Origin: an uncultured Planctomycetia bacterium
GTDB taxonomy: Bacteria > Omnitrophota > Gorgyraeia > Tantalellales > Tantalellaceae
Reading direction: 5' to 3'
Assembly (NCBI GenBank): GCA_964421015.1
Contig: CAYQUS010000001.1
Span: 300,726-364,725, forward strand
DNA length: 64,000 bases
The notes below the pieces were generated by a model, which had not been told where the DNA came from, did no database searches, and saw only the letters and a list, made by a program, of their open reading frames with translations. A program made the position numbers and the translations under genes. Positions within the stretch are counted from its first letter, which is position 1, and each line of letters begins with the position of its first letter. Shown one piece after another: positions 8,515 through 51,119 of the stretch.

Positions 8515-9497
8515 CCCTTACCCCGGACCTGACATCCGGATATATCCCTCCGGACGAAAGCGTCCATCCCCGGCACATCATAAGTGAAATACGAGGGAAG
8601 TCCGTTCGCCATACAAAGCTTGCACACCGCGCTCGACTTTCTCTTCCGCTGGATCTCATCGAGAGCATCATCAAGATAATTCCCTATGACGAACTTACTT
8701 TCATCATAAACAGCGCAGCACAAGAGCGCATCTCCTCTGCAATTTAAAGTTATCTGTTCATCAAGGAGCCTGCACCGCGATATGGCTTTTCCTCTCATCT
8801 CGGCAACCGCTTTTTTCGGAGGCATGATAAGGTCTCCCACCAGACGCTCATCCTCTTCGGTAATTTCAGACAACGGCAATATACCGCAGATGGCCATAAC
8901 CTTTTCCAACGGCAGGAATAGCGCGTCCACAGTCTGTAAAAGCACCTCATTCTCGCGACAATATTCCGCTATTACAGCCTCATCGGCAACATTAGAACGA
9001 TAGCGGTGAAACGCCACCGATATCCTGGTCGAAGGACATATGCCAGTTTTTTCCTTCAAAAGAAAATCCAGATTATCCCTCAAAAGCCCCAGATCTCCGC
9101 CCCTGTGAGTCCTTTCGTATGTTTCTTTCCTGAACCCTGACAACGAGACGCGTAAAATATCGGGACCCGCTGCGATAAGTTTTTTCAGAACATTCTTAGG
9201 AACGTTCAGATTAGTGCTTATGGAACATTTTATCCCGCAGGATCTCACTACCCTTACCATATCATCTATCTCGGGATGAAGAAGCGGTTCCGACCAGTTA
9301 AAAAGCCCTACCCCGGTAATTTTACATTCCTTTGCGGCTTTGGCAAGTATCCGATGAAGAGTATCCGGAGACATCATCCCTTTAGCGTTATCGCCACGCT
9401 GGCTGTTCCCTGACGGACATGAGGGGCACCGTAGATTACATCCTGAAACGACATCGACATAAAAGTGCATTTTGGGTTTTTCAGCAACCATTACCAC
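8511..9497 (-). CDS. Radical SAM domain protein with a Cys-rich C-terminal SPASM/twitch-like region.
   Basis: 328 aa. FYVDVVSGCNLRCPSCP is the canonical CxxxCxxC [4Fe-4S] motif. The C-terminus has CRLLDEQITLNCRGDALLCC and CKLCMANG cysteine clusters. Confidence 0.7.
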   Translation of the reverse strand: MVMVAEKPKMHFYVDVVSGCNLRCPSCPSGNSQRGDNAKGMMSPDTLHRILAKAAKECKITGVGLFNWSEPLLHPEIDDMVRVVRSCGIKCSISTNLNVPKNVLKKLIAAGPDILRVSLSGFRKETYERTHRGGDLGLLRDNLDFLLKEKTGICPSTRISVAFHRYRSNVADEAVIAEYCRENEVLLQTVDALFLPLEKVMAICGILPLSEITEEDERLVGDLIMPPKKAVAEMRGKAISRCRLLDEQITLNCRGDALLCCAVYDESKFVIGNYLDDALDEIQRKRKSSAVCKLCMANGLPSYFTYDVPGMDAFVRRDISGCQVRGKG

Positions 9498-9503
9498 CCC
9501 GCG

Positions 9504-10277
9504 TCAGGCCCGCGTTATCCAGGCATCGGGCCAATATGTCAGCTCTTCGACAACAAACGCCTCCCCGTACATAGCACCGGGGCGCTCTATTTTAAATTCA
9601 GGATGTGTACGGACAAATTCACGCGCCGCTTCAGCCGGATTATCCGATAGCCACTCTTTCCTGCCGTTCGGCGTATCCGCCAGGCGTTCCATTATCCCAT
9701 CTGCGGCCACAATGTATGATCCGGAGCCTACAAGTGTAGCGTAGATCTCCAGCTCTTTCGACACATGATTCCTGGAATGGTCGCTGTCCAGGAAAACAAA
9801 GACCTTTTCGCCGGCCGAGATGTTTTCCTTCACTTTCCTTACGGTATCATCTGACACAGAAGAACCCTCAATAAGTGTGATAAGATCAGAGAATGGGCTC
9901 TTCCCTATGCTGCGGCGCACTTCCTGAGGTATAGTGATATCAATAGAAATAACTTTCCCCTTCCCCATAAGACGACAAATCGAAGCAAAAAAAACGGCGC
10001 TTCCTCCCCGACTCACCCCGGTCTCAATAATAACATCAGGTTTTATAGTGAACACAGATTCCTGGAGCCTCATAAGATCCTCGGGAAACTGCCATATCGG
10101 AAAACCACACCAGGAAAACGACTGCCAATGCAAACTGTTCCACTCCTGTTTTATCCACAGGTCTGACAATGATCTAAAACCCTCAGGAGAATATAACCCG
10201 AACCTTTTCTCTTCCCCGCTCGAGCTCACTGTTGTTACCGTTTTGTCCGCATCGTCTATAATAATTCTCATAAGCAC
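9504..10277 (-). CDS. CmcI-family (cephalosporin-hydroxylase-like) SAM-dependent O-methyltransferase, of the kind that O-methylates rhamnosyl or sugar residues.
   Basis: 257 aa. WQFPEDL...KPDVIIETGVSRGGSAVFFA...KVFVFLDSDHS is the CmcI family pattern. Confidence 0.6.
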   Translation of the reverse strand: MLMRIIIDDADKTVTTVSSSGEEKRFGLYSPEGFRSLSDLWIKQEWNSLHWQSFSWCGFPIWQFPEDLMRLQESVFTIKPDVIIETGVSRGGSAVFFASICRLMGKGKVISIDITIPQEVRRSIGKSPFSDLITLIEGSSVSDDTVRKVKENISAGEKVFVFLDSDHSRNHVSKELEIYATLVGSGSYIVAADGIMERLADTPNGRKEWLSDNPAEAAREFVRTHPEFKIERPGAMYGEAFVVEELTYWPDAWITRA

Positions 10278-10285
10278 CCGCCCCC

Positions 10286-11047
10286 CTAACGCGTCGCCAC
10301 TAAAGTGAATAGTTCTATCTTTTTGTTCATCGGCACAAAAAAGTGTTTAGAAACTGAGAGATCGAACTTGTTAAACCCTCTGAGCTCCAACAAGTTCTCA
10401 AACACCTTAGGCCCTATCCACCACCATGTCCATGCCCCAAAACTTTTGGCCCTTTCTCTTTTGGGCATGAATTCCATCAGTGGCCGCTTCAGATCCATAT
10501 CTGGAGGCAGTCGGTCAGTGATTATTATCGCTTCCTTAGCCCTGTCGGCAGCGAATTGGATAGCGCCCACGGGATTACGTGTGTGCAGAAGCACGGAACC
10601 GAACGTAACAACATCGAAATCGCCCAGCTCTTCCGGAATATCGTATATCGATCCGAAACTGAGTTCGAGTTTTGACCCTAAACGGTTACGGCAATAATAC
10701 CACCCATTATTAAGCCTGCCCATGGTCGAACGCATAGTCCTTTCGACTTCGCGATAATCCTGATCCGAGGTCGGCATAATATCCCAGCTATGAGACGGAG
10801 AAAGATCATAGGGAGTAACTACTGCCCCTTCCTTTTCCATCCAGAAAGCATGACTACCCGTGGCCGTTCCGATCTCAAGAACAGTCTTTCCCTTAAAATC
10901 AAAACTGCCATGGTATTCGCGTTCAGTATATCTGAAATCCCATTGCCCTGGGGTAGGCTCCTCTCCGGGAAGATCTATAACATGAAAAAACGCACATTCT
11001 TCTCTTTTTGGATCCTGATCCACCTTTTGATAACCGACCTTATCCAT
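10286..11047 (-). CDS. Class I SAM-dependent methyltransferase.
   Basis: 253 aa. Motif I KTVLEIGTATGSHAF, then FDVVTFGSVLLHTRNP. Confidence 0.6.
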   Translation of the reverse strand: MDKVGYQKVDQDPKREECAFFHVIDLPGEEPTPGQWDFRYTEREYHGSFDFKGKTVLEIGTATGSHAFWMEKEGAVVTPYDLSPSHSWDIMPTSDQDYREVERTMRSTMGRLNNGWYYCRNRLGSKLELSFGSIYDIPEELGDFDVVTFGSVLLHTRNPVGAIQFAADRAKEAIIITDRLPPDMDLKRPLMEFMPKRERAKSFGAWTWWWIGPKVFENLLELRGFNKFDLSVSKHFFVPMNKKIELFTLVATR

Positions 11048-11084: not shown

Positions 11085-12110
11085 TCATTTCCAATCGATC
11101 CCCCAGGATCCCGGATCGCTATTGCGCAATTCTTCTATTTCCCTGAGGCCTTTAAACTCCGGTTCCGCGAAAAATCTTTCCATATCACTTTTCCACCTAT
11201 CAGGATCATATAAGAAAGGCTTATCCGAAAAGAACGTCATGGGGAAATCCCCGACCATCGCCTTAAGATCCCGATTGTATTTTACATGATCTTTCCTTAT
11301 CCGGTTTGAAAAGTCTTCCGAAATATAAAAAGCTCCTCTAAACCGGCTATCCGACAATGCAAGCCTTTTCAAGGCTGCGTAGTACTCCCTTTTATGGGAA
11401 GTAACCCTGTTAAGCGCTAACTTAAAGACCAAAAGATTCCCCGAAATTGTCGGATTACTGTCCGTAGGATTTTCGTCAGGAGCAAGATCCAACCCGAGCC
11501 TCTCGATAAAATCTCCAACAACTCCGCTTTTCTTTTCCCTCGCGTTCTCATAGCTGATAAACTCCGTCTCGTCCGCGAACTTCTCCCAGAATTTTATGAA
11601 CGCCTCAAGACCCACCCGTCGGAAAATAGAGCAATATTCCGCGAAGGAACAGAAAGTCCCGGTGGCCTGAATTTTTTGGGCCCATGCGCTCCGTGTTGAA
11701 TCTAGAAATTCGCGCAGATAACAGATAACTTTAATATTGTACGGCTCCCTTGAGAAAATTTTTGCTAGACGAGGAGCTTTACCAAAAAATCTTCTAAGTC
11801 TGTCAGCTTTTGTAAGGTTCTGAAATCCTTCCGAGCTGACTATAATGCGCCGGAAAGCCGCAACCTCTTCATCGAACCTCGCTTTCAGATCCGATATCTC
11901 CTCCTCACTGATGGAACTTTTTTGGTGACAGGCTGCAGATATCTCTCCTTGCTGAGGAGAAAATAACCTTGTCCCTGTCCTTGGGTAACATACACCCTGG
12001 CGCGCCAGAACTTCGCGGTTTCCAGTAAGAAAAGCCTGTATAGCGCTTGAGCCTGTTTTAGCTCTGCCAATATGAAGATATAACAACTTTTTAGACATGT
12101 CCAAACCCAT
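11085..12110 (-). CDS. Putative sulfotransferase-fold protein (P-loop-like PAPS-binding motif). Function uncertain.
   Basis: 341 aa. N-terminal LYLHIGRAKTGSSAIQ resembles the sulfotransferase 5-prime-PSB motif. It sits directly downstream of two clear sulfotransferase genes. Confidence 0.4.
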   Translation of the reverse strand: MGLDMSKKLLYLHIGRAKTGSSAIQAFLTGNREVLARQGVCYPRTGTRLFSPQQGEISAACHQKSSISEEEISDLKARFDEEVAAFRRIIVSSEGFQNLTKADRLRRFFGKAPRLAKIFSREPYNIKVICYLREFLDSTRSAWAQKIQATGTFCSFAEYCSIFRRVGLEAFIKFWEKFADETEFISYENAREKKSGVVGDFIERLGLDLAPDENPTDSNPTISGNLLVFKLALNRVTSHKREYYAALKRLALSDSRFRGAFYISEDFSNRIRKDHVKYNRDLKAMVGDFPMTFFSDKPFLYDPDRWKSDMERFFAEPEFKGLREIEELRNSDPGSWGIDWK

Positions 12111-12158
12111 GTTGAAACAAACAAAGAACAGCGCCCGAACTAACTTGTGAATTACCGA

Positions 12159-13118
12159 TCATCCGTTTACCTGTTTTTCATAATTCAGAAAATGAGCCTC
12201 CAGTTCACGCAATGCCGTCAAGTCGACTTCGCCCGGGAAGTGATCTTTGATCGAATTATAATACGCCGCCGCTTCACGGATATTTTTCGACCCTGAAAAA
12301 CTTTTACAGGCACCCTTAACTCCAGAGCTGTTTATTTTTTCCTTGAGTGGCAAAAGACAATCAGAAGAAAATACCTCCCCCAGAAAGTCCAGACAATCTT
12401 TGAGCGTTTTTTCCGGAGACGCTATCAGATCATCGTATTTTATCCTCATCACCCTCCCCCGACCAAGCGCTCGCTCCCCCTTAACCGCATAACTCACTGA
12501 CCGCATCCATCGCGCACAAGCATCATCACTTTTGATGTCCTTTCCGGCACCCCCTGCTCCCGAGAATCCGGTGAAAGAACTCACGACAGCCACGGGGTCT
12601 CGTAGCAGGTGTATAAACTTCGCTTCCGGAAAAAGTTTTGCAAGCGCATACATATAGAAAGTATTCTCCGGGCCGCCGTCCACCCATCGTTTTTTCGAAT
12701 CATCCGGAGACCGGACTACCTGATAATTCCCGGCCGAAACCACACCCGGATCAGGACTCAATAAACCGTTCCGTTCCATACTCTTTATGTTTTCTTCGGG
12801 AACAATGTGATTTGAAACTGACAACTTCCGTATAAATCTGAGACGGGGTTCTCGCGTATCAGTTATAAACTGATCGACTGCCTTCCCGAAAGCAGCGTAA
12901 AAATCGTTTTCATCCCAATCAAGCGCGCTTAAGTGGGAATATCTTCCGTGTACTGTTCCGAACCTGTAAAGTTCTTTCATCCTGACAGCCAATCTTGCTA
13001 TCCAATGCGTTTCCGGGAGCGGCAGTATATTCGGATGCTGACCAAGGCACCATGTTAGGACACTGGTCCCTGATCTGCCCGATCCGACTATAAATATCGG
13101 TTTGTTATCAGACTGCAT
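12159..13118 (-). CDS. Sulfotransferase (PAPS-dependent, bacterial Sulfotransfer_3-like).
   Basis: 319 aa. PIFIVGSGRSGTSVLTWCLGQHP is the 5-prime-PSB PAPS-binding loop. It is a paralog of the adjacent gene. Confidence 0.65.
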   Translation of the reverse strand: MQSDNKPIFIVGSGRSGTSVLTWCLGQHPNILPLPETHWIARLAVRMKELYRFGTVHGRYSHLSALDWDENDFYAAFGKAVDQFITDTREPRLRFIRKLSVSNHIVPEENIKSMERNGLLSPDPGVVSAGNYQVVRSPDDSKKRWVDGGPENTFYMYALAKLFPEAKFIHLLRDPVAVVSSFTGFSGAGGAGKDIKSDDACARWMRSVSYAVKGERALGRGRVMRIKYDDLIASPEKTLKDCLDFLGEVFSSDCLLPLKEKINSSGVKGACKSFSGSKNIREAAAYYNSIKDHFPGEVDLTALRELEAHFLNYEKQVNG

Positions 13119-13122
13119 ATTC

Positions 13123-14172
13123 TCACCGTCCCCAGATTTCCGATAAACTTCTTAAAAAAGATCCCGTCGTGCGAATAAGCCCGGCTTTCGCCAAACGCAA
13201 ACAGTTTATCCATTGACATTGTTCTTCTCTAGACGCAGACAAAAATCTTTTTTCTAAAACACAGAGTGCCCCAAAATCCGGTTCCGCTGGAGGAAACGTA
13301 TGCATGATCTCACGATACAATATGTTCGCGCGCCTGCCTTCAGGGGATGCGGGATCCGGCTCGTTCAGATCAGCGCCAGATGTCCTGGAACTGTTCATCC
13401 TTTCATTTAACGGCAAAAGACAGTCCTGACAAAATGGCTCTCCCAGAAAAGACAGGCATCTCCTTACAACACTTTCCGGATCCGTCTCCAATTCAGAATA
13501 ATTTATTCTCAGAACTTTACCCGCCCCCAGCGCTTTTTCCGCCGTCACAACATCGCTAGTCGCCTTTACCCATACCCGGTAAGCATCCTTTTGGCTGTAA
13601 TCCGCCGTTTTCTTATTAGCCTTGGAAAAATTCATGAGGGAACGTGCCACCGCATCTGGTTCCCTTAAAATATGTATGAATTTCGCCCCGGGGAAAAGCA
13701 GTGATAAACCGTAAATGTGCCTACTGTTCCCCGGAGCCCCGTCAACCCATCTTCTCTTGGGATCGCTGGGGCTTCTCTCTACACAACAACTCCTTCTCGT
13801 GTTACTAAGAGAAGACCGCAAGCCAGGCATATCGGTTCGAACTTTACCGTTCCTTATAAAACTCAGACGAGGCTCGCGTGTATCCACCACAAACCTGTAT
13901 ATGGCATGCCCCAACTCGGAGTAAAAATCATTCTCAGACCATCCGAGTGCCCCTATGTGGGAATAATGTCCGTTGGCCGTGCCCGCTTCATAAAGCTCTT
14001 TCATCATGGTCGTAAGCCTGAAAAGCCAGTTCGTTTCGGGAAGAGGCAATATATTAGGATGCTGTCCGAGACACCAGGTCATAACACTACTGCCGGACCT
14101 TCCGGACCCTACAATAAAGATCGGGTTATCCGTCACTTCCCCTCCGGTATTGTCAGAAAAATCTCTGTTCAT
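13123..14172 (-). CDS. Sulfotransferase, tandem paralog of 12159-13118.
   Basis: PIFIVGSGRSGSSVMTWCLGQHPNILPLPETNW is nearly identical to the neighbour over the first ~90 residues. The longest ORF starts at 14244 but overlaps the ABC exporter gene by 92 nt. Start trimmed to the ATG at 14172 (protein begins MNRDFSDN). Confidence 0.6.
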   Translation of the reverse strand: MNRDFSDNTGGEVTDNPIFIVGSGRSGSSVMTWCLGQHPNILPLPETNWLFRLTTMMKELYEAGTANGHYSHIGALGWSENDFYSELGHAIYRFVVDTREPRLSFIRNGKVRTDMPGLRSSLSNTRRSCCVERSPSDPKRRWVDGAPGNSRHIYGLSLLFPGAKFIHILREPDAVARSLMNFSKANKKTADYSQKDAYRVWVKATSDVVTAEKALGAGKVLRINYSELETDPESVVRRCLSFLGEPFCQDCLLPLNERMNSSRTSGADLNEPDPASPEGRRANILYREIMHTFPPAEPDFGALCVLEKRFLSASREEQCQWINCLRLAKAGLIRTTGSFLRSLSEIWGR

Positions 14173-15991
14173 TCCAGTACCTGTAAAATTTACCTTTCTT
14201 ATCAAGAAGCTCCGATAACGCGCCCTGTTCAGCCACGGTTCCATCTTCCAGGACCACTATCTTGTCGGCACCTCGTATCGTGAAAAACCTGTGCGCCGCC
14301 ACAATGGCCGTTCGGCCCGAAACTGCGTCGCTAATGGCCTCCTGTATGAGTTTCTCTGTACTCGAATCGAGCGAGCTAGTAGCTTCATCAAGTATAATTA
14401 TCTCCGCATCTCTGAGAAGCGCCCTGGCAATGGACAAACGCTGCTTCTCTCCTCCGGATAGTTGCGCGCCCCTTTCTCCTATAACCGTATCAAACCCATC
14501 GGGAAGACGCTTTATCAGCATATCTATCCGGGCTTTTACGGACGCTTCCATAAGCTCCTCTTCACTCACTTCCCGGTCGAGCCCATACGTCATATTCATC
14601 CTAATGGTGTCGTTAAAGAAAAAAGCATCCTGGCTCACGTAAGCTATCTTATCGAGAAGCGACTGTATCTTAAGATCTCGGATATCCGTACCGTCGAGTA
14701 ATATTGTCCCCGCCGGACAATCGTAAAACCGCATAATAAGGTGTATTAGTGTCGTCTTACCCGACCCCGTGGCGCCGACAATAGCCGTCATCTGCCCTTT
14801 ATTAAAAACCAGGGAAATGCCTTTCAATACCATATTCCTGCCGTCATAGGAAAAATCCAATCCCCTCACCTCTATACCGCTCCCTATGCCGGTAAACTCC
14901 CGAGTACCATCGGATAGAATGAACTTTTTTTCATCATCAAGCACTTCCAGTATCTTTTCTATCCGGGCACTGGATATGTTGAGATTTACCCTGAACTGAT
15001 TTATGGCGTTAAAACCGGGAAGAGAAAGTCTGGCAATGTAGAAAAAAACCAGATACGACGAAATGTTCCCTTTTCCCGAAGGCAAAAGGAACGCGACAGC
15101 CGAAGCCAGGGCAATAAACGCGACCGTCATACACAGTTCCTGTATGTGCGGAATGAGCCTTCCCTTCCTGTCGAGGCGGAACGATAATCGCGCCTCCTCT
15201 CTATTGGCTTCCTGGAACAGAGACTTTTCCCAATGTTCCATATTGTGAGCCTTTACCAGAGGCATCGCCATAAGAACGCTGAATATCCGGTCATCCAGGT
15301 CTTCCTCCGCCTTGACCTGTGCCCTCGAGATATTTCGTATACTGGCAGTGACCCACTGTGCCAGAAGAACAAAAAATGGGAATATGCACAACATAAGAGA
15401 TGTTAATTCCCATGAAATATACAGCATTATCCCCAAATACGCGGCAAGCGACAAAACCTGGCTGATAAGTTTCTGAATGTTATTAAGCTGCGCCGAGGTA
15501 GAAGAGGAAAATTTCATAATAACGGTATTTATCCTGCCGAGACTCGCCTTGTCGAAAAAGGATTTCCCGAACTTAAGATACCGTTCGAACATAAGCGACC
15601 TCAAACTGCCGGTCGCCCGCCGAACCAGGTAAGTCACGCCAATGTCCGACATGTACTGCAAAGTAAGTTTCGCCAGGGTTACAGCAAAAATCGACGTTAC
15701 AAGTACCAAGAAAACCGCCTCGAACTGTCCTGTCCCGGAAATAAAGGGACCAACTATGTTCTTCAGGACCGGCACACTGCCGACAAAACCGTAATCCCGG
15801 GTTATCATCACCCTTAAGGCCGCCATCAAAAGCTGGAGATTAAGCACCTGGAAAAGTATCGTCACGGAAGAAAGAAGTATCGTCAGGACAAAATAGCCCC
15901 GGTTCACACCCATTGTTTCCATGAACCGTATCAGGCGTATAGTTTCGGATGCCACCCCTAAATTTCTGTGATCATGATAATTCTTTTTCAT
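14153..15991 (-). CDS. ABC transporter, fused permease/ATPase (type I exporter, MsbA/PglK-like).
   Basis: 612 aa. N-terminal half has about six TM helices. Walker A GATGSGKTT, ABC signature LSGGEKQRLSIARAL, Walker B IIILDEATSSLD. Confidence 0.85.
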   Translation of the reverse strand: MKKNYHDHRNLGVASETIRLIRFMETMGVNRGYFVLTILLSSVTILFQVLNLQLLMAALRVMITRDYGFVGSVPVLKNIVGPFISGTGQFEAVFLVLVTSIFAVTLAKLTLQYMSDIGVTYLVRRATGSLRSLMFERYLKFGKSFFDKASLGRINTVIMKFSSSTSAQLNNIQKLISQVLSLAAYLGIMLYISWELTSLMLCIFPFFVLLAQWVTASIRNISRAQVKAEEDLDDRIFSVLMAMPLVKAHNMEHWEKSLFQEANREEARLSFRLDRKGRLIPHIQELCMTVAFIALASAVAFLLPSGKGNISSYLVFFYIARLSLPGFNAINQFRVNLNISSARIEKILEVLDDEKKFILSDGTREFTGIGSGIEVRGLDFSYDGRNMVLKGISLVFNKGQMTAIVGATGSGKTTLIHLIMRFYDCPAGTILLDGTDIRDLKIQSLLDKIAYVSQDAFFFNDTIRMNMTYGLDREVSEEELMEASVKARIDMLIKRLPDGFDTVIGERGAQLSGGEKQRLSIARALLRDAEIIILDEATSSLDSSTEKLIQEAISDAVSGRTAIVAAHRFFTIRGADKIVVLEDGTVAEQGALSELLDKKGKFYRYWNEQRFF

Positions 15992-16040
15992 AGAAAACTT
16001 GAATATCGCCGGCGTAATGCCAGACGGCCGGATGGCCCTT

Positions 16041-17072
16041 TCAATAAAGCTTTGGAAGGGCTGGTTCCGCTGAGATCTTATTGACGCTACCTAAAGTCTT
16101 CTCTATAACTTTCTTCGAAAGCAGCATGTACAGATAGGAGTCCCCGGTCCTTCTTCCAAATAACTTAAGTAATACAACTGAAAATAAATGCCTGAAAAAA
16201 TGGAACCCGTATTTGATAAAAAGAAATACGCGGATCGCCGCTTCGCCGTACCATTTATAGTATTTCCCGGCAAAATATATCTCGCTTTTCCGGTATTCCG
16301 TCATAGCGAGCATCAGGTTCTTTTTAGCGGAATAACCCCCGTAATGCACGATGGTTGTCTCGGGGAAATATCTTACGGCCCATCCCTTGGCGGCAAAACG
16401 CGCGCAAAGGTCTATGTCCTCAAAATACATGAAAAAGTTCTCATCCAGAAGCCCAGTATCAAAAAGCGCGGTACGTCGCATCATCATGCATGAACCCGAC
16501 ACCCAGTCGACATCGCTGCGCTCGCTGTGACGGGCATCAAGGTAGTCCCTGAAACTGTAATCTTTAAGAGAAAGACGGTAATGACATATCTTACGGCCCA
16601 GTTCTGTAAAAAAAGTCGGGAATGCCCCGCATGACATCTTGAAATTGCGTCTCTCATCCACCTGGCGCGGTCCCAGAACGCCTACCTTCCGGTTCTTTTC
16701 GTTGTCCATGTACAAAAGCATCCTGTCGAAAGTATTCTCAAAAATACATGTATCGCTGTTCAGAAGAACGATAAAATCACCGTAAGAGTTGTAGATACCG
16801 ATATTGTTAGCCTTGCTGAACCCTTCATTACTTCCCATACGGATAAGACGCACTTCAGGAAAAGCCGAAAGTTCCACAGGGTCGATCTCGCCGGAACTAT
16901 TATCGATGAGGACTATCTCAAAACTGCACCTCGGCCTGAAATCATATATGGACCTGATACAATCTCTTGTAAGGTTCCAGGTGCCATAATTGACTATTAT
17001 TACGCTAAGCTTAACTTTGCAAGATCCTTCCCTGTCCACACCTTCTCCGTTCTGTTTACCTCTTTTCCTCAA
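16041..17072 (-). CDS. GT2-family glycosyltransferase.
   Basis: 343 aa. LSVIIVNYGTWNLTRDCIRSI...EIVLIDNSSG...LNSDT is the GT-A DxD-type layout. Confidence 0.75.
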   Translation of the reverse strand: MRKRGKQNGEGVDREGSCKVKLSVIIVNYGTWNLTRDCIRSIYDFRPRCSFEIVLIDNSSGEIDPVELSAFPEVRLIRMGSNEGFSKANNIGIYNSYGDFIVLLNSDTCIFENTFDRMLLYMDNEKNRKVGVLGPRQVDERRNFKMSCGAFPTFFTELGRKICHYRLSLKDYSFRDYLDARHSERSDVDWVSGSCMMMRRTALFDTGLLDENFFMYFEDIDLCARFAAKGWAVRYFPETTIVHYGGYSAKKNLMLAMTEYRKSEIYFAGKYYKWYGEAAIRVFLFIKYGFHFFRHLFSVVLLKLFGRRTGDSYLYMLLSKKVIEKTLGSVNKISAEPALPKLY

Positions 17073-17089
17073 TTTCGACCGACAAACCT

Positions 17090-18175
17090 CTATCCCGCCC
17101 GGTGATATAACTCAAGGGTTTCCTTTGCGGCCTTTGCCCAGGAGAATTCCCGGGCCCGTTCCATCCCCTTTTCCACGAAACCGTCCGAAAGTTCCCTGTT
17201 CATGAGGATGTTGTATATGACGTCGGCGGATTTTTTGACATCGGTAGGCGGCACCATAAAGGCAGCGTCCCCCGCTACCTCGGGGAGAGAGGAACCTTCA
17301 GAACACACTACCGGCGTCCCGCACTGCATGGCCTCAAGAACCGTAAGCCCGAACCCCTCGTAAAGTGAGAGGTGAACCAGCACACTGGCGATACTGTAAA
17401 GCACCGCAAGATCCCTGGAAGGGACTTCCCCAAGATACCTGATATACCTGCCTTTAAGAATGTCTTTAAGCTCATCTTCTTTTTTATCCCATCTCCCGCA
17501 AACTACGAGCTGATGGGGAATACCCCAAGACCTCAAAAGCTCGAAAACCTTGAGAAGATTCCCCACGTTCTTATGGGGCTTTATACTTCCGACGTAAAGC
17601 ACTATATCTTTGTCCAGCCGGTACCTGCTCCGTACGTCCGCTATCCTGGTCTTATCGTCTATCCGGTGAAAATCTTTTCCTCCTGCCTCATACACAACAT
17701 CTATTTTAGAGGCAAAATCTTTGCCGAATATCCTCAGAAGATCCTGCTCCGTATGCCGGGATACCGAGATCACTTTTTCCGCTGTTCCCAGCGCCCGGCC
17801 TATCATGAAAGAAGCGTAGATCCTGGCTAAAGGTGACGGCACAGATTCTGGGAACAAAAGATATATGAGGTCATGTATCGTGACCACCATTCTACCCTTG
17901 TAAAGAAGCGGGATGTTGAAATGCGGAACGTGCAGCACGTCTAGTTTTGCCGACTCATATGGCGTGAAAAACTGTTCCCTTCCTGAATATATCGGCGCCT
18001 CCCATTCTACTATGCGGACTTTTTCCCTGGGGAGCGTCTCTTCAAGAACACCCGTTTTTCCAAAAACAACGAACTCGTCATCTTTGGATTGCCTTACCAT
18101 CTCCGGCAAAAGGCTTTTTATGTAGCTGCCTATCCCCGGATGGCTTATCATCCTCGCGTCAAAACCTATTCTCAT
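17090..18175 (-). CDS. GT4-family (GT-B, group 1) glycosyltransferase.
   Basis: 361 aa. The C-terminal domain EGFGLTVLEAMQCGTPVVCSEGSSLPEV is the GT4 EX7E motif. Confidence 0.8.
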   Translation of the reverse strand: MRIGFDARMISHPGIGSYIKSLLPEMVRQSKDDEFVVFGKTGVLEETLPREKVRIVEWEAPIYSGREQFFTPYESAKLDVLHVPHFNIPLLYKGRMVVTIHDLIYLLFPESVPSPLARIYASFMIGRALGTAEKVISVSRHTEQDLLRIFGKDFASKIDVVYEAGGKDFHRIDDKTRIADVRSRYRLDKDIVLYVGSIKPHKNVGNLLKVFELLRSWGIPHQLVVCGRWDKKEDELKDILKGRYIRYLGEVPSRDLAVLYSIASVLVHLSLYEGFGLTVLEAMQCGTPVVCSEGSSLPEVAGDAAFMVPPTDVKKSADVIYNILMNRELSDGFVEKGMERAREFSWAKAAKETLELYHRAG

Positions 18176-18318
18176 AACCGTCCTTCTTGCCCTTACCTCT
18201 TAACCTCAACCTTTAACCTGAACCCTAGATTTGGCCAAAATACAGTATGTATTTTGTTCTTATAGGTCAACTCACAGCCAAATCTACACCTTACTCCTTT
18301 CTCCTTCCCTCTTTCTCC

Positions 18319-19809
18319 TTATATCTTCTCGAATATTATAACCCCCGGAGCTTCCCTATCCGTCCGGAATCTATGGAACCCCATATCATCAGGTCTATTC
18401 TCCCACTTTATATCCGGGTAATCAAGCACATGTTTCTTATATTTACCGCTCACCTCCCTGAAATATGGGCTGTCAAGAGACTCCTTCCAGTCTTTCCTGA
18501 AAACTATCCATTCCGGCATATGATCGCTGTCATATATCCCGTAATTATCCACTTTCAGGTCGGTATAGAACATGACAGCCATATCACCGTATATTATTTT
18601 TACCTCGTCTCCGGTTTTAGCGTTCTTATTCAAAAATTTCACTATCCCCTCTACCGGACCGTCATAGTCATGCGTGATCTCATAAAGATACTTCGGAAGA
18701 TAACACTCAAAACGCCCCATATTGAACACCCCGGTCAGGATAGAAAGTCCCAAAAAACAACCGAAGAGCGCTCTATTGAACTTAAAAAGCCTGAAAAGTA
18801 TCATTCCTTCAACAATAGCCAGAAGCGGTATAAAATATACCAGGTACCTGAAGTTCCTCTCCTCGGCAAAAAGAAAAGCAGCCATACTGAGAAGAAGCAC
18901 CGGCAGAATAAGCCAAACTGCCCTGGCCTCTTCGGTGGAAAGCTTTATTTTCCAGCGCCTCTTCCATATCAGCCTGAAGGCGTAGGCCCCCAAAAAGAAA
19001 AAGACCGGCATAATGAACTTATTTATCATCCGGATCTGGAACTCAAAATTTTTCCATAATCTTTTAGCGCTTATGGCCGCTACATGAGCCCCGCTATTGG
19101 AGTATAAGAACCATGGAGCTACGCTCCCTGCCGTAAATATGATAAATAAGCCGAAAACGGGAAAAGTTTTCCGCTGAAAAGAAAAAACGAAATAATGCAG
19201 GCAGATCGCGGCGAAAACCGGAAGGAACATACCATGTACCGTGTAACCGAGAGCGGTAAGCGAGATATAAACCCCTAAAATGTCGGACCATTTTCGTTTT
19301 TCCAGATATCGGGAGTAAAAGATAAGTGCAACAATCACCAGAAACACCGCCGGGGCATAGTACCTGGCCTGACGCATTAAAAGAAGATAATTTACCGAAA
19401 AAGCCGTAAGCACAGAGGCCGTCAATGCCGTAAAACTCTCCCGGGTCAAACGAAGCGCCAGTATGTATAAGAGAGGGATGTTTAAAAGCCCCAACAAGGC
19501 AAAAAATACACGCGCCGAAAAATTACTTTCGCCGAAGAGCCGGAAAGCCGCCGCCGTTATGTAGAACTGTCCCCAGGGGTGATATCTCCAGCCGTAATCT
19601 TCCGAGAATGACGTTCTTATGGTGGGATTGACGAGATTCTTACCGTCATAAGCCTTTGGATAGCCATATTCAAGCGTGCGCCTGGCAAGAATGGCAGTCT
19701 CCGCCTCGTCCTGCCAGAGATACTGGTTTCCCAGGTTAGCAAAAAGCAGGATCCCCGCCAGGACAGTAAGGATGGCTATAGAATAGTACTGGTTAAGTTT
19801 CTTTATCAT
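18319..19809 (-). CDS. Polytopic membrane glycosyltransferase. ArnT/PMT_2-like GT-C fold (GT39/GT83-like).
   Basis: 496 aa with more than 10 predicted TM helices. The first periplasmic loop LWQDEAETAILARRTLEYGY resembles the ArnT DE-x-x-YAEI motif. Confidence 0.55.
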   Translation of the reverse strand: MIKKLNQYYSIAILTVLAGILLFANLGNQYLWQDEAETAILARRTLEYGYPKAYDGKNLVNPTIRTSFSEDYGWRYHPWGQFYITAAAFRLFGESNFSARVFFALLGLLNIPLLYILALRLTRESFTALTASVLTAFSVNYLLLMRQARYYAPAVFLVIVALIFYSRYLEKRKWSDILGVYISLTALGYTVHGMFLPVFAAICLHYFVFSFQRKTFPVFGLFIIFTAGSVAPWFLYSNSGAHVAAISAKRLWKNFEFQIRMINKFIMPVFFFLGAYAFRLIWKRRWKIKLSTEEARAVWLILPVLLLSMAAFLFAEERNFRYLVYFIPLLAIVEGMILFRLFKFNRALFGCFLGLSILTGVFNMGRFECYLPKYLYEITHDYDGPVEGIVKFLNKNAKTGDEVKIIYGDMAVMFYTDLKVDNYGIYDSDHMPEWIVFRKDWKESLDSPYFREVSGKYKKHVLDYPDIKWENRPDDMGFHRFRTDREAPGVIIFEKI

Positions 19810-21745
19810 TACCCCCCTCTCCTTGACATAAAAAACCCTTTCTTAGCAAAAATCCGACAAGGTACTCCGCGCAGTCGCAAACCGTGGTCTCTTCTGACCT
19901 TAAAACTATATCCGGTTTTTTGGGGGGTTCATATGGCGCGTTTACTCCGGTGAACTCCGTAACGATCCCCAGTCGAGCCTTCTCATACAGGTTTTTAGGA
20001 TCCCTTTTTTCACAGGTTTCTAAAGATGTATCGATAAAAACCTCTACAAAATTGTCTTCACCCACAACCCTCCTGGCTTGGGCCCGGTCTTCTCGGTAAG
20101 GAGAGATAAAAGCGGCAATGACAATAACACCGGCATCATTCATAAGCCGCGCCACTTCAGCGACACGTCTTATGTTTTCCGTTCTGTCCTGCGGGGAAAA
20201 ACCCAAGTCCCTGTTTAGCCCATGCCGAACATTATCCCCGTCCAGGACATAACACAAGTGGCCCCTGGAAATAAGTTGTTTTTCGGTCTCATACGCAATG
20301 GTGGATTTCCCGGAGCCGCTTAAACCCGTGAACCAGAAAGTAACGGGCCGCTGTTTCAGGATATTCTCCCGGGCTCTTTTCAGATCTTCCCCCTCCTGAG
20401 GATATAGATTGACTCTGTCAGGATTTGCCGTGTTCTCCGGGCGTGCCATCGAAGGAAGCCGGCCTCTTTCTATTATCATCCCAGCGGCCACCGTGGCATG
20501 GGTCGCGGTATCTATAAGTATAAAACTTCCGGTCTGACGATTCCTTGTATATTCGTCACAAAAAACAGACTTGAAACACTGGACAGTTACTCGGCCTATC
20601 TCATTCAGTTTCAGGAAAGAAGCTTCCTGCCTGTTCAATGTCGAAGGATCTATGCTGAACTGGATATTGGTTAGTGAACACTTGATAAGCTGTGTCGTAT
20701 GTTTAAGCCAGTATACCTTCCCCAATTCCAGCGGAGAATTATCCATCCAAACGAGGATGGTCTCGATCTCTCTGCTTATTTTCGGTAAATTTGAAACATG
20801 CACGATCATGTCACCGCGGGCTATATCCAGCTCATCTTCGGTTGTCACGATTACAGATTGCGGAGCAAATGCGTACGGGACTTCTCCCCGGGGACTCACG
20901 ATAGACCGTACGCACGTTTTTTTCTGCGACGGAAGCACCATTATCTCGTCGCCTTTATGTATCACCCCCGAAGCTAACTGCCCGGAATATCCCCTGAAAT
21001 CCATATTGGGCCTTATGACATACTGTACCGGGAATCGAAGATCTATAAGATTCCTGGAACTGTGAATATGTATGTTTTCAAGATAACCTAAAAGCGGGAA
21101 TCCCTTATACCATGGCATACGCTTGCTTTTTTTGACTATATTGTCGCCTTTTAATGCGCTGATCGGTATGTACTCTATATTGGATATTTGAAGTTTCCCG
21201 GAAAAATCTTCAAAGTCCCTGACTATGCGGTTGAACGTCTCCTGCGAATACTTCACCAGGTCCATTTTGTTGACTGCCACAACTATGTTCTTTATGCCTA
21301 AAAGCGAAACAATAAAAGCATGCCTCTTAGATTGGACCAAAAGCCCCTTTCTCGCGTCAACGAGAATAACGGCAAGATCAGACGTAGACGCTCCCGTAGC
21401 CATGTTACGGGTGTATTGTTCATGCCCCGGGGTATCCGCTATGATAAAATGCCTTTTGGGTGTTGAAAAATATCTGTACGCTACATCTATTGTTATTCCC
21501 TGTTCCCTCTCGGATTTAAGACCGTCCATCGCAAGTGACAGATCAAGTTTTGGGCGTTTTAACCTTTTCGAATCTTTCCTGACGTTCGCCAGCTGATCCC
21601 CGTAAAGCCCGTTGGCTTCGAACAGAAGCCGCCCTATCATCGTGGATTTACCGTCATCCACGCTTCCGGCCGTTGATATCCTCAATAGATCAGCTTTCCG
21701 GCTTTGCTTTACCACCTCATGGCTTTCCTCTCGTAAAGTCGTCAT
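19793..21745 (-). CDS. cysNC: Bifunctional sulfate adenylyltransferase subunit 1 / adenylylsulfate kinase (CysN-CysC fusion, NodQ-like).
   Basis: 650 aa. N-terminal GTPase G1 motif GSVDDGKSTMIGRLL and DTPGHEQY are CysN-like. The C-terminal ~180 aa has P-loop GLSGSGKSTIA and DGDNVRHGLNRDLGFS, which is the APS kinase pattern. Confidence 0.9.
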   Translation of the reverse strand: MTTLREESHEVVKQSRKADLLRISTAGSVDDGKSTMIGRLLFEANGLYGDQLANVRKDSKRLKRPKLDLSLAMDGLKSEREQGITIDVAYRYFSTPKRHFIIADTPGHEQYTRNMATGASTSDLAVILVDARKGLLVQSKRHAFIVSLLGIKNIVVAVNKMDLVKYSQETFNRIVRDFEDFSGKLQISNIEYIPISALKGDNIVKKSKRMPWYKGFPLLGYLENIHIHSSRNLIDLRFPVQYVIRPNMDFRGYSGQLASGVIHKGDEIMVLPSQKKTCVRSIVSPRGEVPYAFAPQSVIVTTEDELDIARGDMIVHVSNLPKISREIETILVWMDNSPLELGKVYWLKHTTQLIKCSLTNIQFSIDPSTLNRQEASFLKLNEIGRVTVQCFKSVFCDEYTRNRQTGSFILIDTATHATVAAGMIIERGRLPSMARPENTANPDRVNLYPQEGEDLKRARENILKQRPVTFWFTGLSGSGKSTIAYETEKQLISRGHLCYVLDGDNVRHGLNRDLGFSPQDRTENIRRVAEVARLMNDAGVIVIAAFISPYREDRAQARRVVGEDNFVEVFIDTSLETCEKRDPKNLYEKARLGIVTEFTGVNAPYEPPKKPDIVLRSEETTVCDCAEYLVGFLLRKGFLCQGEGGNDKET

Positions 21746-22651
21746 TTAAAAATACCCTTCTTTCTTCTTCTGTTCCATTGATGAGTCCCGGTCATGGTCT
21801 ATAAGGCGGGTTATTCTCTCTGAATCTGTAGCGGTCATTATCTCCTTTATGATTTCCGGGACAGTAGACGCCTTTGACAGTATCGCTCCCGTGCATGGGT
21901 AACAACCAAGTGTCCGGAACCGGCAAACGACCTTTTTGGGTCTTTCTCCTTTCTTCAGAGGAACCGGGCCGTCTAAAGGTATCAGCCGCCCTTCCCTCAC
22001 TATCATCTCCCTTTTCTTAGCAAAATACATCGGCACTACGGGTATCTTTTCCGCATATATGTATTCCCAAACGTCAAGTTCTGTCCAGTTGGAAAGCGGG
22101 AAAACCCTTATGCTCTGTCCTTTGTCAAGCATGGTATTGTACACATTCCACAACTCAGGGCGCTGGTTTTTAGGATCCCACTGTCCGAATTCATCGCGGA
22201 AAGAAAAGACCCTTTCCTTAGCCCTGGATTTTTCTTCCTCACGCCTTGCCCCTCCGAATGCCGCGTCATGCTTACCTTCTTTCAGCGCGGCCAGTAGGGC
22301 TTGTGTCTTCAGGATCTCACAGCACTTTACGGTGCCTAATTCCCAGGGGTTCACTTGCCCCCCGGAAATTTGGGGAGGCAAATAAACTTTAAGCTCAACA
22401 CCCGACTTTTTTACAAATTTATCACGGAAACGGTACATTTCCTTAAACTTCATGGAGGTATCAACATGCAGGAGCGGGAAAGGTATTTTACCGGGGTAAA
22501 AAGCCTTCTGAGCTAGACGTACCATTACAGAGGAATCCTTACCGACAGAATAAAGCATAACGGGCCGCTCGAAGGATGCCGCCACTTCTCGAATTATCTG
22601 TATGCTTTCCGCTTCAAGTAACTCTAGATTATTGATCCTGTACTTTTGCAT
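21746..22651 (-). CDS. cysD: Sulfate adenylyltransferase subunit 2 (CysD, NodP-like).
   Basis: 301 aa. PP-loop SVGKDSSV plus PAPS_reduct-family conservation. It is immediately upstream of cysNC with zero gap. Confidence 0.9.
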
Positions 22652-22710: not shown

Positions 22711-23802
22711 TTAAAGAAAGCCTATCTCCCTGATAATATCTTCCGCCTCGAATCTATCGAGGTTTTCTCCCTCCCCGGGGTAAATCACCCTGACATTCTC
22801 ACCTCTCGGTGCCCACCGGGCGGGATCATTGACACCGCTGAAAAGTATTATCGTCTGCACTCCTGAAACAGCCGCAATGTGCGCCGGAGCGGAATCAAGC
22901 CCGATGAAGATCTCCGCATTTTTCATAAGAGGCCCCAGAACGTTAAGATTTACTTTACCTGATAGATCGATCACTTTTTGCGGAGTTTTTCGCGCGACTC
23001 CTTTAATGTAAACACTGTCTTCTTTACTCCCGACTATCACAGGTAAAAGCTTCTTTTGCGTTTGAAGATAGTCAATGACCCCGGCGAACCCTTCAGGGGT
23101 CCAGTTCTTTTCCTTCCTTCCGGAAACCATATGAAGCACTGCGTACGGCCTGTCGATACCCTCTTTTTTTCTTATATTTTCGGCTTCCAGATCGCTTTCC
23201 TTTGATGAAACAAGCCTAACCTGGGCCTCCTCGCACCTTATACCCAAAGGCCCAAGGAGCGCCGCGTTTTTGTCGATTTCGTGGGCATTTTCATCATACG
23301 GCACTTCGTGCGTCAGTAAAAAACCCAGGCCTGTTATACCATAACTTATTCTGTATTTAACTCCCGCCAGAAATGAGGCGAGTATATGCCTTGCGTCCCC
23401 CCTGAGATCTACTACCGCGTCATATTCTCCCCTCTTAATAATGCGGACCATATCTAAAAAACCACGTATCCCATACCATAGTCCGCGTCTTTCACGCCTG
23501 AACCACGGCGCGTCAAAAACCTTTAAACCGCTGATAGATGCTTCGTCTGACAATAAGCACTGTGCCCACGAAGGAACCATAAGATCTATCCTTGCTTGGG
23601 GAAAGGCCTTCCTAAGCGGAGCCAGCACGGACGTCGCCATGACCACATCCCCAATATGATCTATCCTTATCACAAGTAAACTTTCGGGGGGATGTATCAT
23701 CTTTGCAGGTACACTTTTTAATATCCGCCTGACGATTTCCCCGGCGGAATCCAACATAGCGAATAGAACCGTATACAGCCCCTTCTTGTAAACATACTTC
23801 AT
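22711..23802 (-). CDS. GT9-family glycosyltransferase (heptosyltransferase-like, RfaF/WaaC/WaaQ family).
   Basis: 363 aa. LVIRIDHIGDVVMATSVLAPLRKAFPQARIDLMV at the N-terminus and GLDSAPAHIAAVSGVQTIILFSG in the C-terminal domain are the GT9 signature. Confidence 0.8.
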   Translation of the reverse strand: MKYVYKKGLYTVLFAMLDSAGEIVRRILKSVPAKMIHPPESLLVIRIDHIGDVVMATSVLAPLRKAFPQARIDLMVPSWAQCLLSDEASISGLKVFDAPWFRRERRGLWYGIRGFLDMVRIIKRGEYDAVVDLRGDARHILASFLAGVKYRISYGITGLGFLLTHEVPYDENAHEIDKNAALLGPLGIRCEEAQVRLVSSKESDLEAENIRKKEGIDRPYAVLHMVSGRKEKNWTPEGFAGVIDYLQTQKKLLPVIVGSKEDSVYIKGVARKTPQKVIDLSGKVNLNVLGPLMKNAEIFIGLDSAPAHIAAVSGVQTIILFSGVNDPARWAPRGENVRVIYPGEGENLDRFEAEDIIREIGFL

Positions 23803-51032: not shown

Positions 51033-51119
51033 AAATCCTCCATCACCCGGGCACACCCCGCTTCCCGCGGGCTATGCCCGGGATTTCAACGCTCCCTTTA
51101 TGTCACTCTTTCAGGACAG

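Follow-up and report, generated by a model that had tools for sequence, protein, structure and literature searches.

The window analysed here (the whole stretch of DNA, 64 kb in length) contains 55 scanned open reading frames (ORFs), which cover 97.7% of it, and 54 of them lie on the minus strand. The coordinates of the genes for sulfate activation, sulfotransferases, the exporter, glycosyltransferases and modification enzymes are given in Table 1.

Table 1. Features of the sulfation and glycan genes in the window, in order of position.
Feature	Position	Strand	Basis
HddC-like nucleotidyltransferase	575–1321	-	NF049965, 169 bits (cutoff 300)
HddA-like GHMP kinase	1306–2337	-	NF049969, 376 bits (cutoff 600)
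Methyltransferase	2334–3212	-	
TylF-type methyltransferase	3089–3868	-	
1342-aa multidomain protein (methyltransferase-GT2-GT4-methyltransferase)	3868–7896	-	Pfam domains aa 46–162, 392–603, 850–985, 1206–1254
Methyltransferase	7900–8514	-	Pfam, NCBIfam
Radical SAM/SPASM protein	8511–9497	-	Pfam, NCBIfam
CmcI-type rhamnosyl O-methyltransferase-like	9504–10277	-	Pfam, NCBIfam
Methyltransferase	10286–11047	-	Pfam, NCBIfam
ST3, third sulfotransferase (large family mostly outside Pfam)	11085–12110	-	
ST1, Sulfotransfer_3	12159–13118	-	PF13469, 6.4e-32
ST2, Sulfotransfer_3 (diverged paralogue, C-terminal extension of ~30 aa)	13123–14172	-	PF13469, 9.9e-30
Fused TMD-NBD ABC exporter (MsbA/HepA/PglK-like)	14153–15991	-	ABC_membrane + ABC_tran
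GT2	16041–17072	-	Pfam
GT4	17090–18175	-	Pfam
PMT_2/GT-C membrane transferase	18319–19809	-	Pfam
CysN-CysC fusion (ATP sulfurylase GTPase subunit + APS kinase)	19793–21745	-	NF004035, PF01583, motifs
CysD, small (PAPS-reductase-fold) subunit of ATP sulfurylase	21746–22651	-	NF003587, TIGR02039, PF01507, 1ZUN_A
GT9 heptosyltransferase (RfaQ/heptosyltransferase III-like), directly upstream of cysD	22711–23802	-	PF01075, 2e-22

From the GT9 gene to the end of the module, the largest gap between genes is 143 nt. The stop of cysNC overlaps the start of the next gene (GT-C) by 17 nt, the stop of the ABC gene overlaps the start of ST2 by 20 nt, and the GT2/GT4/GT-C stretch between the exporter and cysNC has gaps of 49, 17, and 143 nt. 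The cysD/cysNC cassette lies inside the glycan array with glycosyltransferase genes on both flanks. The packing of the PAPS cassette, sulfotransferase and glycan genes is operon-like, and cysDNC and the sulfotransferases share one unidirectional gene array, as stated in the original prediction. As the scans for promoters and terminators gave only chance-level results, it is solely the gene packing that speaks for co-transcription.

The CysD protein exceeded the curated cutoffs of the NCBIfam models NF003587 (446 bits, cutoff 195) and TIGR02039 (444 bits, cutoff 396.6) and matched PF01507 (6e-52). Its residues 5–301 were aligned with the structure of the P. syringae ATP sulfurylase (1ZUN_A) at full length. 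The CysN-CysC protein scored 895 bits (cutoff 715) with NF004035, the model for the bifunctional CysN/APS kinase, and contains the Pfam domains GTP_EFTU (aa 21–204) and APS_kinase (PF01583, aa 467–615, 4e-66). The comparison with 1ZUN_B and the APS kinase 3UIE showed that the motifs GSVDDGKST, DTPGH, NKMD, the P-loop GLSGSGKST and LDGDNVRHGLN are kept; the G1, G3, and G4 GTPase motifs and the C-terminal APS kinase P-loop are found in one polypeptide, as in the NodQ-type bifunctional CysN/CysC. The matches of 19793–22651 to CysD, CysN, and APS kinase models bear out the proposal that the pair generates PAPS and is arranged like NodP/NodQ. CysD and the CysN domain together make up a complete predicted ATP sulfurylase of the heterodimer type, and the complete fused CysC (APS kinase) domain indicates that the end product of the cassette is PAPS. 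No PAP phosphatase gene (cysQ) was found in the window. The cassette may be the sole sulfate-activation system of the genome, and it may also serve assimilation.

ST1 and ST2 had been proposed as two clear PAPS-type sulfotransferases, and both were matched by PF13469. In the homologue alignment A1, the ST1 segments GSGRSGTS, PLPETHW, and LLRDPxxVxxS are invariant, and the PAPS-binding and catalytic residues R15, S16, G17, S19, E36, R173, and S181 (ST1 numbering) are invariant in 24 homologues. ST2 retains the family-invariant 5'-PSB and 3'-PB residues, and the proteins that it matches best are encoded elsewhere by the second gene of a tandem sulfotransferase pair. The longest version of its ORF starts at 14244; the start at 14172 gives a 349-aa protein (P0075) that fits the family alignment. 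The profile of ST1/ST2 matched the solved sulfotransferases 4GOX, TPST1/2, CurM and the mycobacterial Stf9 (2Z6V, E=3e-10) and Stf1 (2ZQ5, E=4e-6), and the key residues were aligned with the equivalent segments of TPST1 and OLS-ST. Like TPST1/2, both proteins have the R-S-G-T motif of the 5'-PSB loop, the catalytic Glu as the base and the R...S motif of the 3'-PB, which places them in the superfamily of PAPS-dependent sulfotransferases. Their closest solved relatives are sulfotransferases of the polyketide-synthase and protein-tyrosine types rather than of the carbohydrate type.

The original prediction called the third gene only sulfotransferase-like. ST3 proved to have the superfamily fold with the 5'-PSB motif K-T-G-S/T and the 3'-PB motif R-x7-S; K18, E94, and R133 are invariant across its homologues and S141 is nearly invariant. 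The structures that ST3 matches best belong to carbohydrate sulfotransferases, and the members of its family elsewhere are also found in glycan loci, adjoining other sulfotransferases. The PAPS-binding 5'-PSB/3'-PB residues, whose absence had been named beforehand as grounds for rejecting the prediction, are present in all three candidates on alignment. None of the three has a signal peptide and the P-loop lies within ~20 residues of the N-terminus; each is predicted to be a cytoplasmic PAPS-type sulfotransferase.

It is highly improbable that these genes are decayed or non-catalytic paralogues and the glycan is unsulfated, even though there is a precedent in Aeromonas salmonicida, where a gene with a sulfotransferase domain adjoins wzt and wbbB and sulfate in the O-antigen was not reported (PMC4483657). 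The three ORFs of the window are intact and of full length relative to their families, they keep the invariant PAPS-binding and catalytic residues, and a PAPS-producing cassette is maintained alongside.

The ABC exporter scored under the cutoffs of three models: HepA_fam (430 bits, cutoff 725), MsbA (381 bits, cutoff 602), and PglK NF050066 (187 bits, cutoff 1000). A PglK/Wzk-type flippase was therefore rejected at the equivalog level; the fold class is the same. The Wzm/Wzt (ABC-2) O-antigen pathway was also rejected, as the Wzm and Wzt of relatives had no tblastn match in the window, where the fused exporter is found instead. The related loci L001 and L003 do carry Wzm/Wzt; the Wzt proteins of relatives are short (241–243 aa), and this length suggests that they have no room for a carbohydrate-binding domain. 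The exporter of the window is presumed to be an exporter or flippase of a lipid-linked glycan.

The 1342-aa multidomain protein is presumably a polymerising and methylating glycosyltransferase. The modification genes at 7900–11047 lie between this polymerase and the sulfotransferases, and their collinear orthologues in the metagenomic relative L086 are 45–83% identical. The sugar-activation and methylation genes at 575–3868 are syntenic with those of the related loci L003/L004. The GT9 protein scored 125 bits with TIGR02201, which is below the cutoff of 170. Pse, heptose and heavy methylation had also been attributed to this locus: PseB, PseC, PseI, and PseF all exceed the equivalog cutoffs, the HddA-like and HddC-like proteins were found with scores under the model cutoffs, and nine genes contain ten methyltransferase domains.

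The composition of the array also bears on the nature of the sulfated substrate. The substrate of the sulfotransferases might not be a glycan but another compound that the neighbouring ABC protein exports, for example a secreted peptide (cf. RaxST/RaxX with RaxB), a small metabolite or a lipid. Such a substrate would be in line with the tyrosylprotein and CurM/OLS polyketide sulfotransferases being the nearest solved homologues of ST1/ST2, with the scores of the exporter against type-I-secretion and bacteriocin-exporter models, and with the radical SAM/SPASM enzyme of the module, a class frequent in peptide maturation. We nevertheless consider it very unlikely. Neither a C39 peptidase domain in the exporter nor an HlyD-type partner in the window was found, the array gaps of at most 143 nt leave no room for a precursor-peptide gene, and PKS or NRPS genes are absent from the window ORFs. 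The structural proximity of ST3 to carbohydrate sulfotransferases and the partners of the ST family in other genomes also argue against it: a homologue of the GT2-GT4 core (aa ~373–1018 of the 1342-aa protein) is next to ST in 51 of 80 genome loci, and Wzm/Wzt are found alongside the ST family in 13 of the 80 genomes.

The arrangement recurs in other genomes. L086 is collinear with the window from cysD-cysNC to the giant glycosyltransferase, with the order TauE-CysD-CysNC-(Wzy_C)-ABC-ST-ST3 homologue-methyltransferase-CmcI methyltransferase-radical SAM-methyltransferase-giant glycosyltransferase; its ABC orthologue is 57% identical and adjoins the sulfotransferase. Of the 80 species-level genomes with the ST family, 12 encode CysNC or CysC, and 7 encode CysD, no farther than 10 kb from an ST homologue. 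The taxa with this linkage are Bacillota, Gammaproteobacteria, Dyella, Lysobacterales, Spirochaetota, Nitrospirae, and Paenibacillus. By our own estimate, the chance expectation for it is well under 1%. The linked cassettes of these genomes are just 46–52% identical to the CysNC of the window, whereas the cassettes of Omnitrophota are 66–79% identical, indicating that the linkage arose more than once. Judging solely from the named proteins that CysNC matches best, the organism probably belongs to Candidatus Omnitrophota.

The same identity values may be read differently, namely that cysD/cysNC serve housekeeping sulfate activation for cysteine synthesis and either lie among the glycan genes by coincidence or are dual-purpose. 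The closeness of the window CysNC to the cassettes of related uncultured bacteria suggests vertical inheritance and not co-transfer with the sulfotransferases. In all five relatives, cysD is preceded by a sulfate-permease-like TauE-type gene, which the window does not have, and in two of them an Rrf2-type regulator is also found upstream; the cassette might stand so in a general sulfur-uptake unit, and the regulator would also fit general sulfur metabolism. We regard this explanation as unlikely. As predicted, the cassette has no sulfite-reductase or cysteine-synthesis neighbours: the assimilatory partners cysH, sir (sulfite reductase), and cysK (cysteine synthase) are absent from the 55 ORFs of the 64-kb window and from the 10 kb around the cassettes of the five relatives, all of which lie among glycan genes. 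Its position between glycosyltransferase genes, with a stop codon overlapping the next gene, and the independent recurrence of the linkage with the ST family across several phyla argue against an incidental placement, while dual use is compatible with the main explanation, sulfation of a surface glycan.

Several known systems resemble the locus in part. In Sinorhizobium, NodP/NodQ, a CysD homologue and a CysN-CysC fusion, supply PAPS for Nod-factor sulfation by NodH. As proposed for the window, the PAPS serves a dedicated carbohydrate sulfotransferase whose gene accompanies those for glycan synthesis; the acceptor there, however, is a lipo-chitooligosaccharide made by NodABC, and no nod genes, nodABC included, are found among the 55 ORFs. 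Orthology to the nodulation sulfotransferases NodH/NoeE was rejected, as ST1 matched the NoeE equivalog model at the P-loop only, with 27 bits (cutoff 500). A relationship to Stf0 (trehalose 2-sulfotransferase) was rejected as well, since the ST1/ST2 profile had no Stf0 match at E<=0.01. Consequently, the analogy to NodPQ/NodH and Stf0 that had been drawn holds as a functional likeness, but not as orthology of the sulfotransferases to NodH, NoeE or Stf0. Mycobacterium tuberculosis has the same CysN-CysC fusion with CysD and Stf for sulfolipid-1, and the CysC of the window aligns with 4BZP; the acceptor there is trehalose and the genes are not within one glycan operon. In Xanthomonas oryzae, RaxP/RaxQ are a CysD and CysN-CysC pair, and RaxST sulfates tyrosine on a peptide secreted through an ABC transporter with a peptidase domain. 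A RaxST-type peptide system was rejected for the window, as its exporter consists of just ABC_membrane and ABC_tran, and a peptide gene, peptidase domain and membrane-fusion protein are lacking.

Cytoplasmic assembly followed by ABC export is exemplified by E. coli O9a WbdA/WbdD, Klebsiella WbbB, and Geobacillus WsaE, while H. pylori Wzk and C. jejuni PglK are fused ABC flippases. No use of sulfate is known in any of these systems. The locus shares with this group a giant multi-glycosyltransferase protein with fused methyltransferase domains and an ABC exporter; no Wzy-type polymerase is required and all modifications are cytoplasmic. The Wzm/Wzt of such pathways is replaced in the window by the fused half-transporter. 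Vibrio sp. KMM 8419 has a large polysaccharide locus with cysD, cysN, cysC, three sulfotransferases and an ABC transporter, and its authors regard the presence of PAPS genes and sulfotransferases in a polysaccharide cluster as a hallmark of the synthesis of sulfated polysaccharides (PMC11641403). Its cysC is separate, in contrast to the fused CysN-CysC of the window, and its export is of the KpsMT/DE type and not by a fused MsbA/PglK-type exporter. Moreover, its cys genes are known second copies and its product was solved by NMR.

Taken together, the PAPS cassette, the three sulfotransferases, their embedding in the array and the recurrence both in L086 and in 12 of the 80 genomes support the original prediction that the locus makes its own activated sulfate and sulfates a surface glycan or glycolipid. 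The product of this very large gene cluster is very probably a surface sugar polymer that carries sulfate and methyl groups, and we consider it likely that the stretch serves as the sulfation arm of a pathway in which a surface glycan is assembled in the cytoplasm and exported by an ABC transporter. In this model, the glycan would grow on a membrane lipid carrier facing the cytoplasm and be O-methylated with SAM. Cytoplasmic PAPS from CysD/CysN-CysC would be used by ST1, ST2, and ST3 for O-sulfation at different positions or on different residues, and the presence of cysDNC inside the operon would couple PAPS supply to glycan synthesis. After sulfation, the modified lipid-linked glycan would be exported via the ABC transporter, the GT-C enzymes could decorate it further in the periplasm, and the final product at the cell surface would most likely be an LPS O-antigen-like polymer.

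The ST subfamily with the motif WCLGQHPN is paired with the GT2-GT4 polymerase in at least 256 species-level genomes of ~10 phyla, and soil and sediment bacteria commonly carry it. A bolder proposal, which we consider unlikely, is that this pair, with its repeated recruitment of cysDNC, marks a class of surface glycans that is widespread, sulfated, in many cases methylated and exported by ABC transporters. In this class, sulfate would be the chain-capping, length-determining group (like methyl/phosphate in WbdD systems), and ST3 would stand for a branch of the superfamily with ~39,000 clusters at 50% identity, mostly unmodelled by Pfam. Cultured carriers of the pair include Dyella monticola, Dyella mobilis, Paenibacillus tyrfis, P. 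tianmuensis, and Rhodoplanes tepidamans, which makes the chemistry testable.

The occurrence of PAPS genes and sulfotransferases in a polysaccharide cluster has already been published, and the locus changes no concept; what is new is the lineage, in which this arrangement was undescribed. As the ST3 family is mostly missed by the standard domain libraries, the capacity of genomes for sulfation is probably under-annotated. Few sulfated bacterial polysaccharides are structurally proven, and they are wanted for their biological activities and as animal-free substitutes for sulfated glycans. For these, the locus would offer a compact and complete genetic recipe from an uncultured lineage, comprising the PAPS supply, three sulfotransferases, a polymerase and an exporter.

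Both genes of the proposed PAPS cassette, CysD and a CysN-CysC fusion (CysNC), scored above the cutoffs of the CysD/CysN/APS-kinase models against which they were checked (see the table). CysD aligned over its full length with 1ZUN chain A. CysNC consists of an EF-Tu-type GTPase domain (aa 21-204) and an APS kinase domain (aa 467-615), and its G1, G3 and G4 motifs and kinase P-loop are kept in alignments to 1ZUN_B and the plant APS kinase 3UIE. As CysD is full length and the GTPase and kinase motifs are conserved, the cassette is complete, judging from its sequence, and PAPS is its predicted end product. The best named matches of CysNC were Candidatus Omnitrophota MAGs (66-79% identity).

The window contains 55 ORFs covering 97.7% of 64 kb, 54 of them on the minus strand, and domain scans showed that nearly all of the products are glycan-biosynthesis proteins. 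The GC content is 0.42-0.52 and the GC skew is negative throughout; scans of the window revealed no tRNA, no Rfam family and no notable tandem repeat. From the GT9 heptosyltransferase gene (23802) to position 575 all genes are co-directional with gaps of at most 143 nt, in agreement with the original prediction that cysDNC and the sulfotransferases share one unidirectional array. No nucleotide separates cysD from cysNC, whose stop lies 17 nt inside the following GT-C gene; likewise, the fused ABC exporter gene ends 20 nt inside the ST2 sulfotransferase gene. Glycosyltransferase genes flank the cassette on both sides. A consensus scan of 10.5-25.5 kb found 21 promoter and 17 terminator sites versus 19.8 and 16.1 expected, which is the chance level, so it is from gene packing that we infer co-transcription of cysDNC with the sulfotransferase genes. 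The sole plus-strand gene and the GT9 gene are divergent, with 46 bp between them. There is one long non-coding gap, of 563 bp; it falls in the most AT-rich region of the window, directly upstream of pseB, holds 1.9 copies of a 20-bp repeat and is probably an operon boundary or promoter region.

Coordinates of the features in the window
Feature	Position	Strand	Match
RgpF-like (rhamnan synthesis protein F) gene, runs off window start	1-590	-	3.4e-35
Giant MT-GT2-GT4-MT protein, 1342 aa	3868-7896	-	
Radical SAM/SPASM protein	8511-9497		every NCBIfam match far below cutoff
ST3, third sulfotransferase	11085-12110	-	
ST1, sulfotransferase	12159-13118	-	Sulfotransfer_3, 6e-32
ST2, sulfotransferase	13123-14172	-	Sulfotransfer_3, 1e-29
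Fused ABC exporter	14153-15991	-	
GT-C-type glycosyltransferase	18319-19809		PMT_2 / GT87-like
CysN-CysC fusion	19793-21745	-	NF004035, 895 bits (cutoff 715)
CysD	21746-22651	-	NF003587, 446 bits (cutoff 195)
GT9 heptosyltransferase	22711-23802	-	
Membrane protein, 475 aa, listed with the GT-C-type	23849-25276	+	weak GT87 / mannosyltransferase-like, E=1.4e-3
GT-C-type glycosyltransferase	30718-32601		PMT_2 / GT87-like
GT-C-type glycosyltransferase	32603-34258		PMT_2 / GT87-like
GT-C-type glycosyltransferase	38114-39415		PMT_2 / GT87-like
Large protein, 625 aa	45005-46882	-	no Pfam match
Pseudaminic-acid pathway	48226-58295		
Non-coding gap	58296-58858		
20-bp repeat	58677-58714		
GT-C-type glycosyltransferase	59967-61655		PMT_2 / GT87-like
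Large protein, 729 aa	61659-63848	-	no Pfam match

The PAPS-binding residues on which the original prediction had hinged are present in the tandem sulfotransferases ST1 and ST2: across 24 aligned homologues, the 5'-PSB loop GSGRSGTS, the Glu of PLPETHW and the 3'-PB element LLRDPxxVxxS do not vary. In the ST1/ST2 profile, the PAPS-motif segments align with the equivalent parts of tyrosylprotein and OLS/CurM sulfotransferases; the profile detects mycobacterial Stf9 and Stf1 and leaves Stf0 undetected. Because the catalytic residues are conserved, it is unlikely that the sulfotransferases are inactive, even though the case of Aeromonas salmonicida, in which a sulfotransferase-domain gene lies beside wzt and wbbB and no sulfate was reported, indicates that a sulfotransferase gene alone is no proof of sulfation (PMC4483657). 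The predicted ST2 start at 14172 is the one that fits its homologues. The proteins most similar to ST2 are encoded, on other contigs, by the second gene of a tandem sulfotransferase pair, so the ST1-ST2 pair is old and did not arise by recent duplication. The last ~30 codons of ST2 encode a C-terminal extension, QCQWINCLRLAKAGLIRTTGSFLRSLSEIWGR, which is missing from ST1 and might form a helix that binds a membrane or a partner; C-terminal tails also occur in several longer homologues of the family alignment.

The 112.6-kb metagenomic contig L086, whose genes run TauE-CysD-CysNC-(Wzy_C)-fused ABC-ST-ST3 homologue-MT-CmcI MT-rSAM-MT-giant GT, is collinear with the window at identities of 45-83%. 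The loci of the other close sulfotransferase homologues, L001-L004, share a module with the window in which sulfotransferases and methyltransferases are accompanied by a radical SAM enzyme and the giant MT-GT2-GT4-MT protein, but their exporter is Wzm/Wzt, and none of the four has cysDN within 10 kb. The radical SAM/SPASM protein is kept within the module in L003 and L086 and has a 772-aa form in L001. In the five relatives of the cassette (L085-L089), the order TauE-CysD-CysNC among glycan genes was found every time, and neither cysH nor sir lies within 10 kb; other sulfotransferases are nearby in two and an Rrf2 regulator is upstream in two. We give a housekeeping or dual-use role of cysDNC in sulfate activation a lower, but real, probability. 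The TauE/TSUP-type permease gene directly adjoins cysD at its 5' side in all five, and the GT9 gene takes this position in the window; a search prompted by this arrangement found no TauE-type permease gene anywhere in the window.

One genome per species was scanned, which gave 256 loci encoding ST relatives; 80 of these were kept for neighbour counts. The GT2-GT4 core (aa ~373-1018) of the giant protein accompanied the ST1/ST2 family more regularly than any other neighbour and was matched over more than 400 aa in 51 of the 80 species-level genomes, from about ten phyla; no characterised member of this core family was found. Both Wzm and Wzt were present in 13/80 loci, CysNC or CysC within 10 kb in 12/80 and CysD within 10 kb in 7/80. 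The cysDNC-linked loci belong to Bacillota, Gammaproteobacteria, Dyella, Lysobacterales, Spirochaetota, Nitrospirae and Paenibacillus. Since their CysNC proteins are just 46-52% identical to that of the window, compared with 66-79% for Omnitrophota, the cassette seems to have been recruited to sulfotransferase loci separately in different lineages, an argument for its functional coupling to the sulfotransferases. It is unlikely that the acceptor is a peptide or a small molecule, as the array has no space for a precursor gene and no peptidase domain or PKS, and the sulfotransferase family is consistently paired with a polymerase.

ST3 belongs to a separate family, since its profile-profile match with ST1/ST2 was weak (probability 10%) and confined to the 3'-PB motif region. 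An exhaustive profile search gave 39,212 clusters at 50% identity (E<=1e-3), or 6,892 at E<=1e-30; the rarity suggested by 21 matches in a word-indexed search was a sensitivity artefact. Among 60 sampled members, Pfam found Sulfotransfer_1 in six, Sulfotransfer_4 in three and five other families or groups in one or two members each, so that most had no hit and Pfam mostly misses this family. Many of its proteins have 700-1600 aa with 2-4 tandem domain copies, or carry fused GT4 or methyltransferase domains.

The proposed mechanism starts from the observed gene identities, conserved motifs, gene order and its conservation. Sulfate would be activated to PAPS in the cytoplasm, while a lipid-linked glycan would be polymerised by the MT-GT2-GT4-MT enzyme with accessory GT2 and GT4. 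An HddA/HddC-type activated heptose is probably among the precursors (both matches scored below cutoff; an HddA-like kinase and nucleotidyltransferase also occur in L003/L004), and rhamnose-type sugars may be too (CmcI-type MT, RgpF-like gene). The glycan would be O-methylated, then O-sulfated by the three cytoplasmic sulfotransferases and exported by the fused ABC transporter. The GT-C enzymes, five or six in number, may decorate it further; together with several small GT2s resembling polyprenyl-phosphate sugar synthases, they imply extensive periplasmic decoration. The GT9 heptosyltransferase hints weakly at LPS as the final carrier. The idea that sulfate is an export-coupled chain terminator was considered too and gained no support; Wzt of the relatives has 241-243 aa, which we judge too short to include a carbohydrate-binding domain, and the exporter of the window is fused. 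The predicted pseudaminic-acid genes are also in the locus and form a complete pathway: PseB, PseC, PseI and PseF exceed their equivalog cutoffs, and PseG falls slightly short of its own (150.5 vs 153.6). The accompanying Pse-associated methylase, GNAT, formyltransferase-like protein and WbuX-type amidotransferase suggest a modified derivative (acetamidino or methylated).

The closest precedent is the capsule cluster of Vibrio sp. KMM 8419, with second copies of cysD, cysN and cysC and three sulfotransferases; its authors consider cys genes plus sulfotransferases a hallmark of sulfated polysaccharide synthesis (PMC11641403). NodPQ/NodH, RaxPQ/RaxST and mycobacterial CysDNC/Stf are analogous in function; the tests did not place the window sulfotransferases or their locus among NodH/NoeE, Stf0 or RaxST-type systems. 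We found no description of the sulfotransferase/GT2-GT4 module in the literature, including that on sulfated O-antigens with Wzm/Wzt, and no paper on sulfation in the literature on Omnitrophota sulfate metabolism.

Family models, motifs and gene order thus confirm a cysDNC-plus-sulfotransferase cassette in a glycan locus, and the complete cassette, conserved sulfotransferase motifs and recurring linkage support the reading that the locus makes its own PAPS and would sulfate a surface glycan. The wide distribution of the sulfotransferase/GT2-GT4 module and a third sulfotransferase family mostly missed by Pfam add to its interest. Among the cultured strains with the ST + GT2-GT4 (+cysDNC) module are Dyella mobilis DHON07 and Paenibacillus tyrfis MSt1. 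In Dyella monticola 4 G-K06 (L028, 9968-17221), a 416-aa sulfotransferase, CysD, CysNC and DegT immediately adjoin etfA/etfB, the classical O-antigen locus position in Xanthomonadales; this strain is thus a cultured, tractable carrier of the sulfotransferase, PAPS and GT2-GT4 combination.
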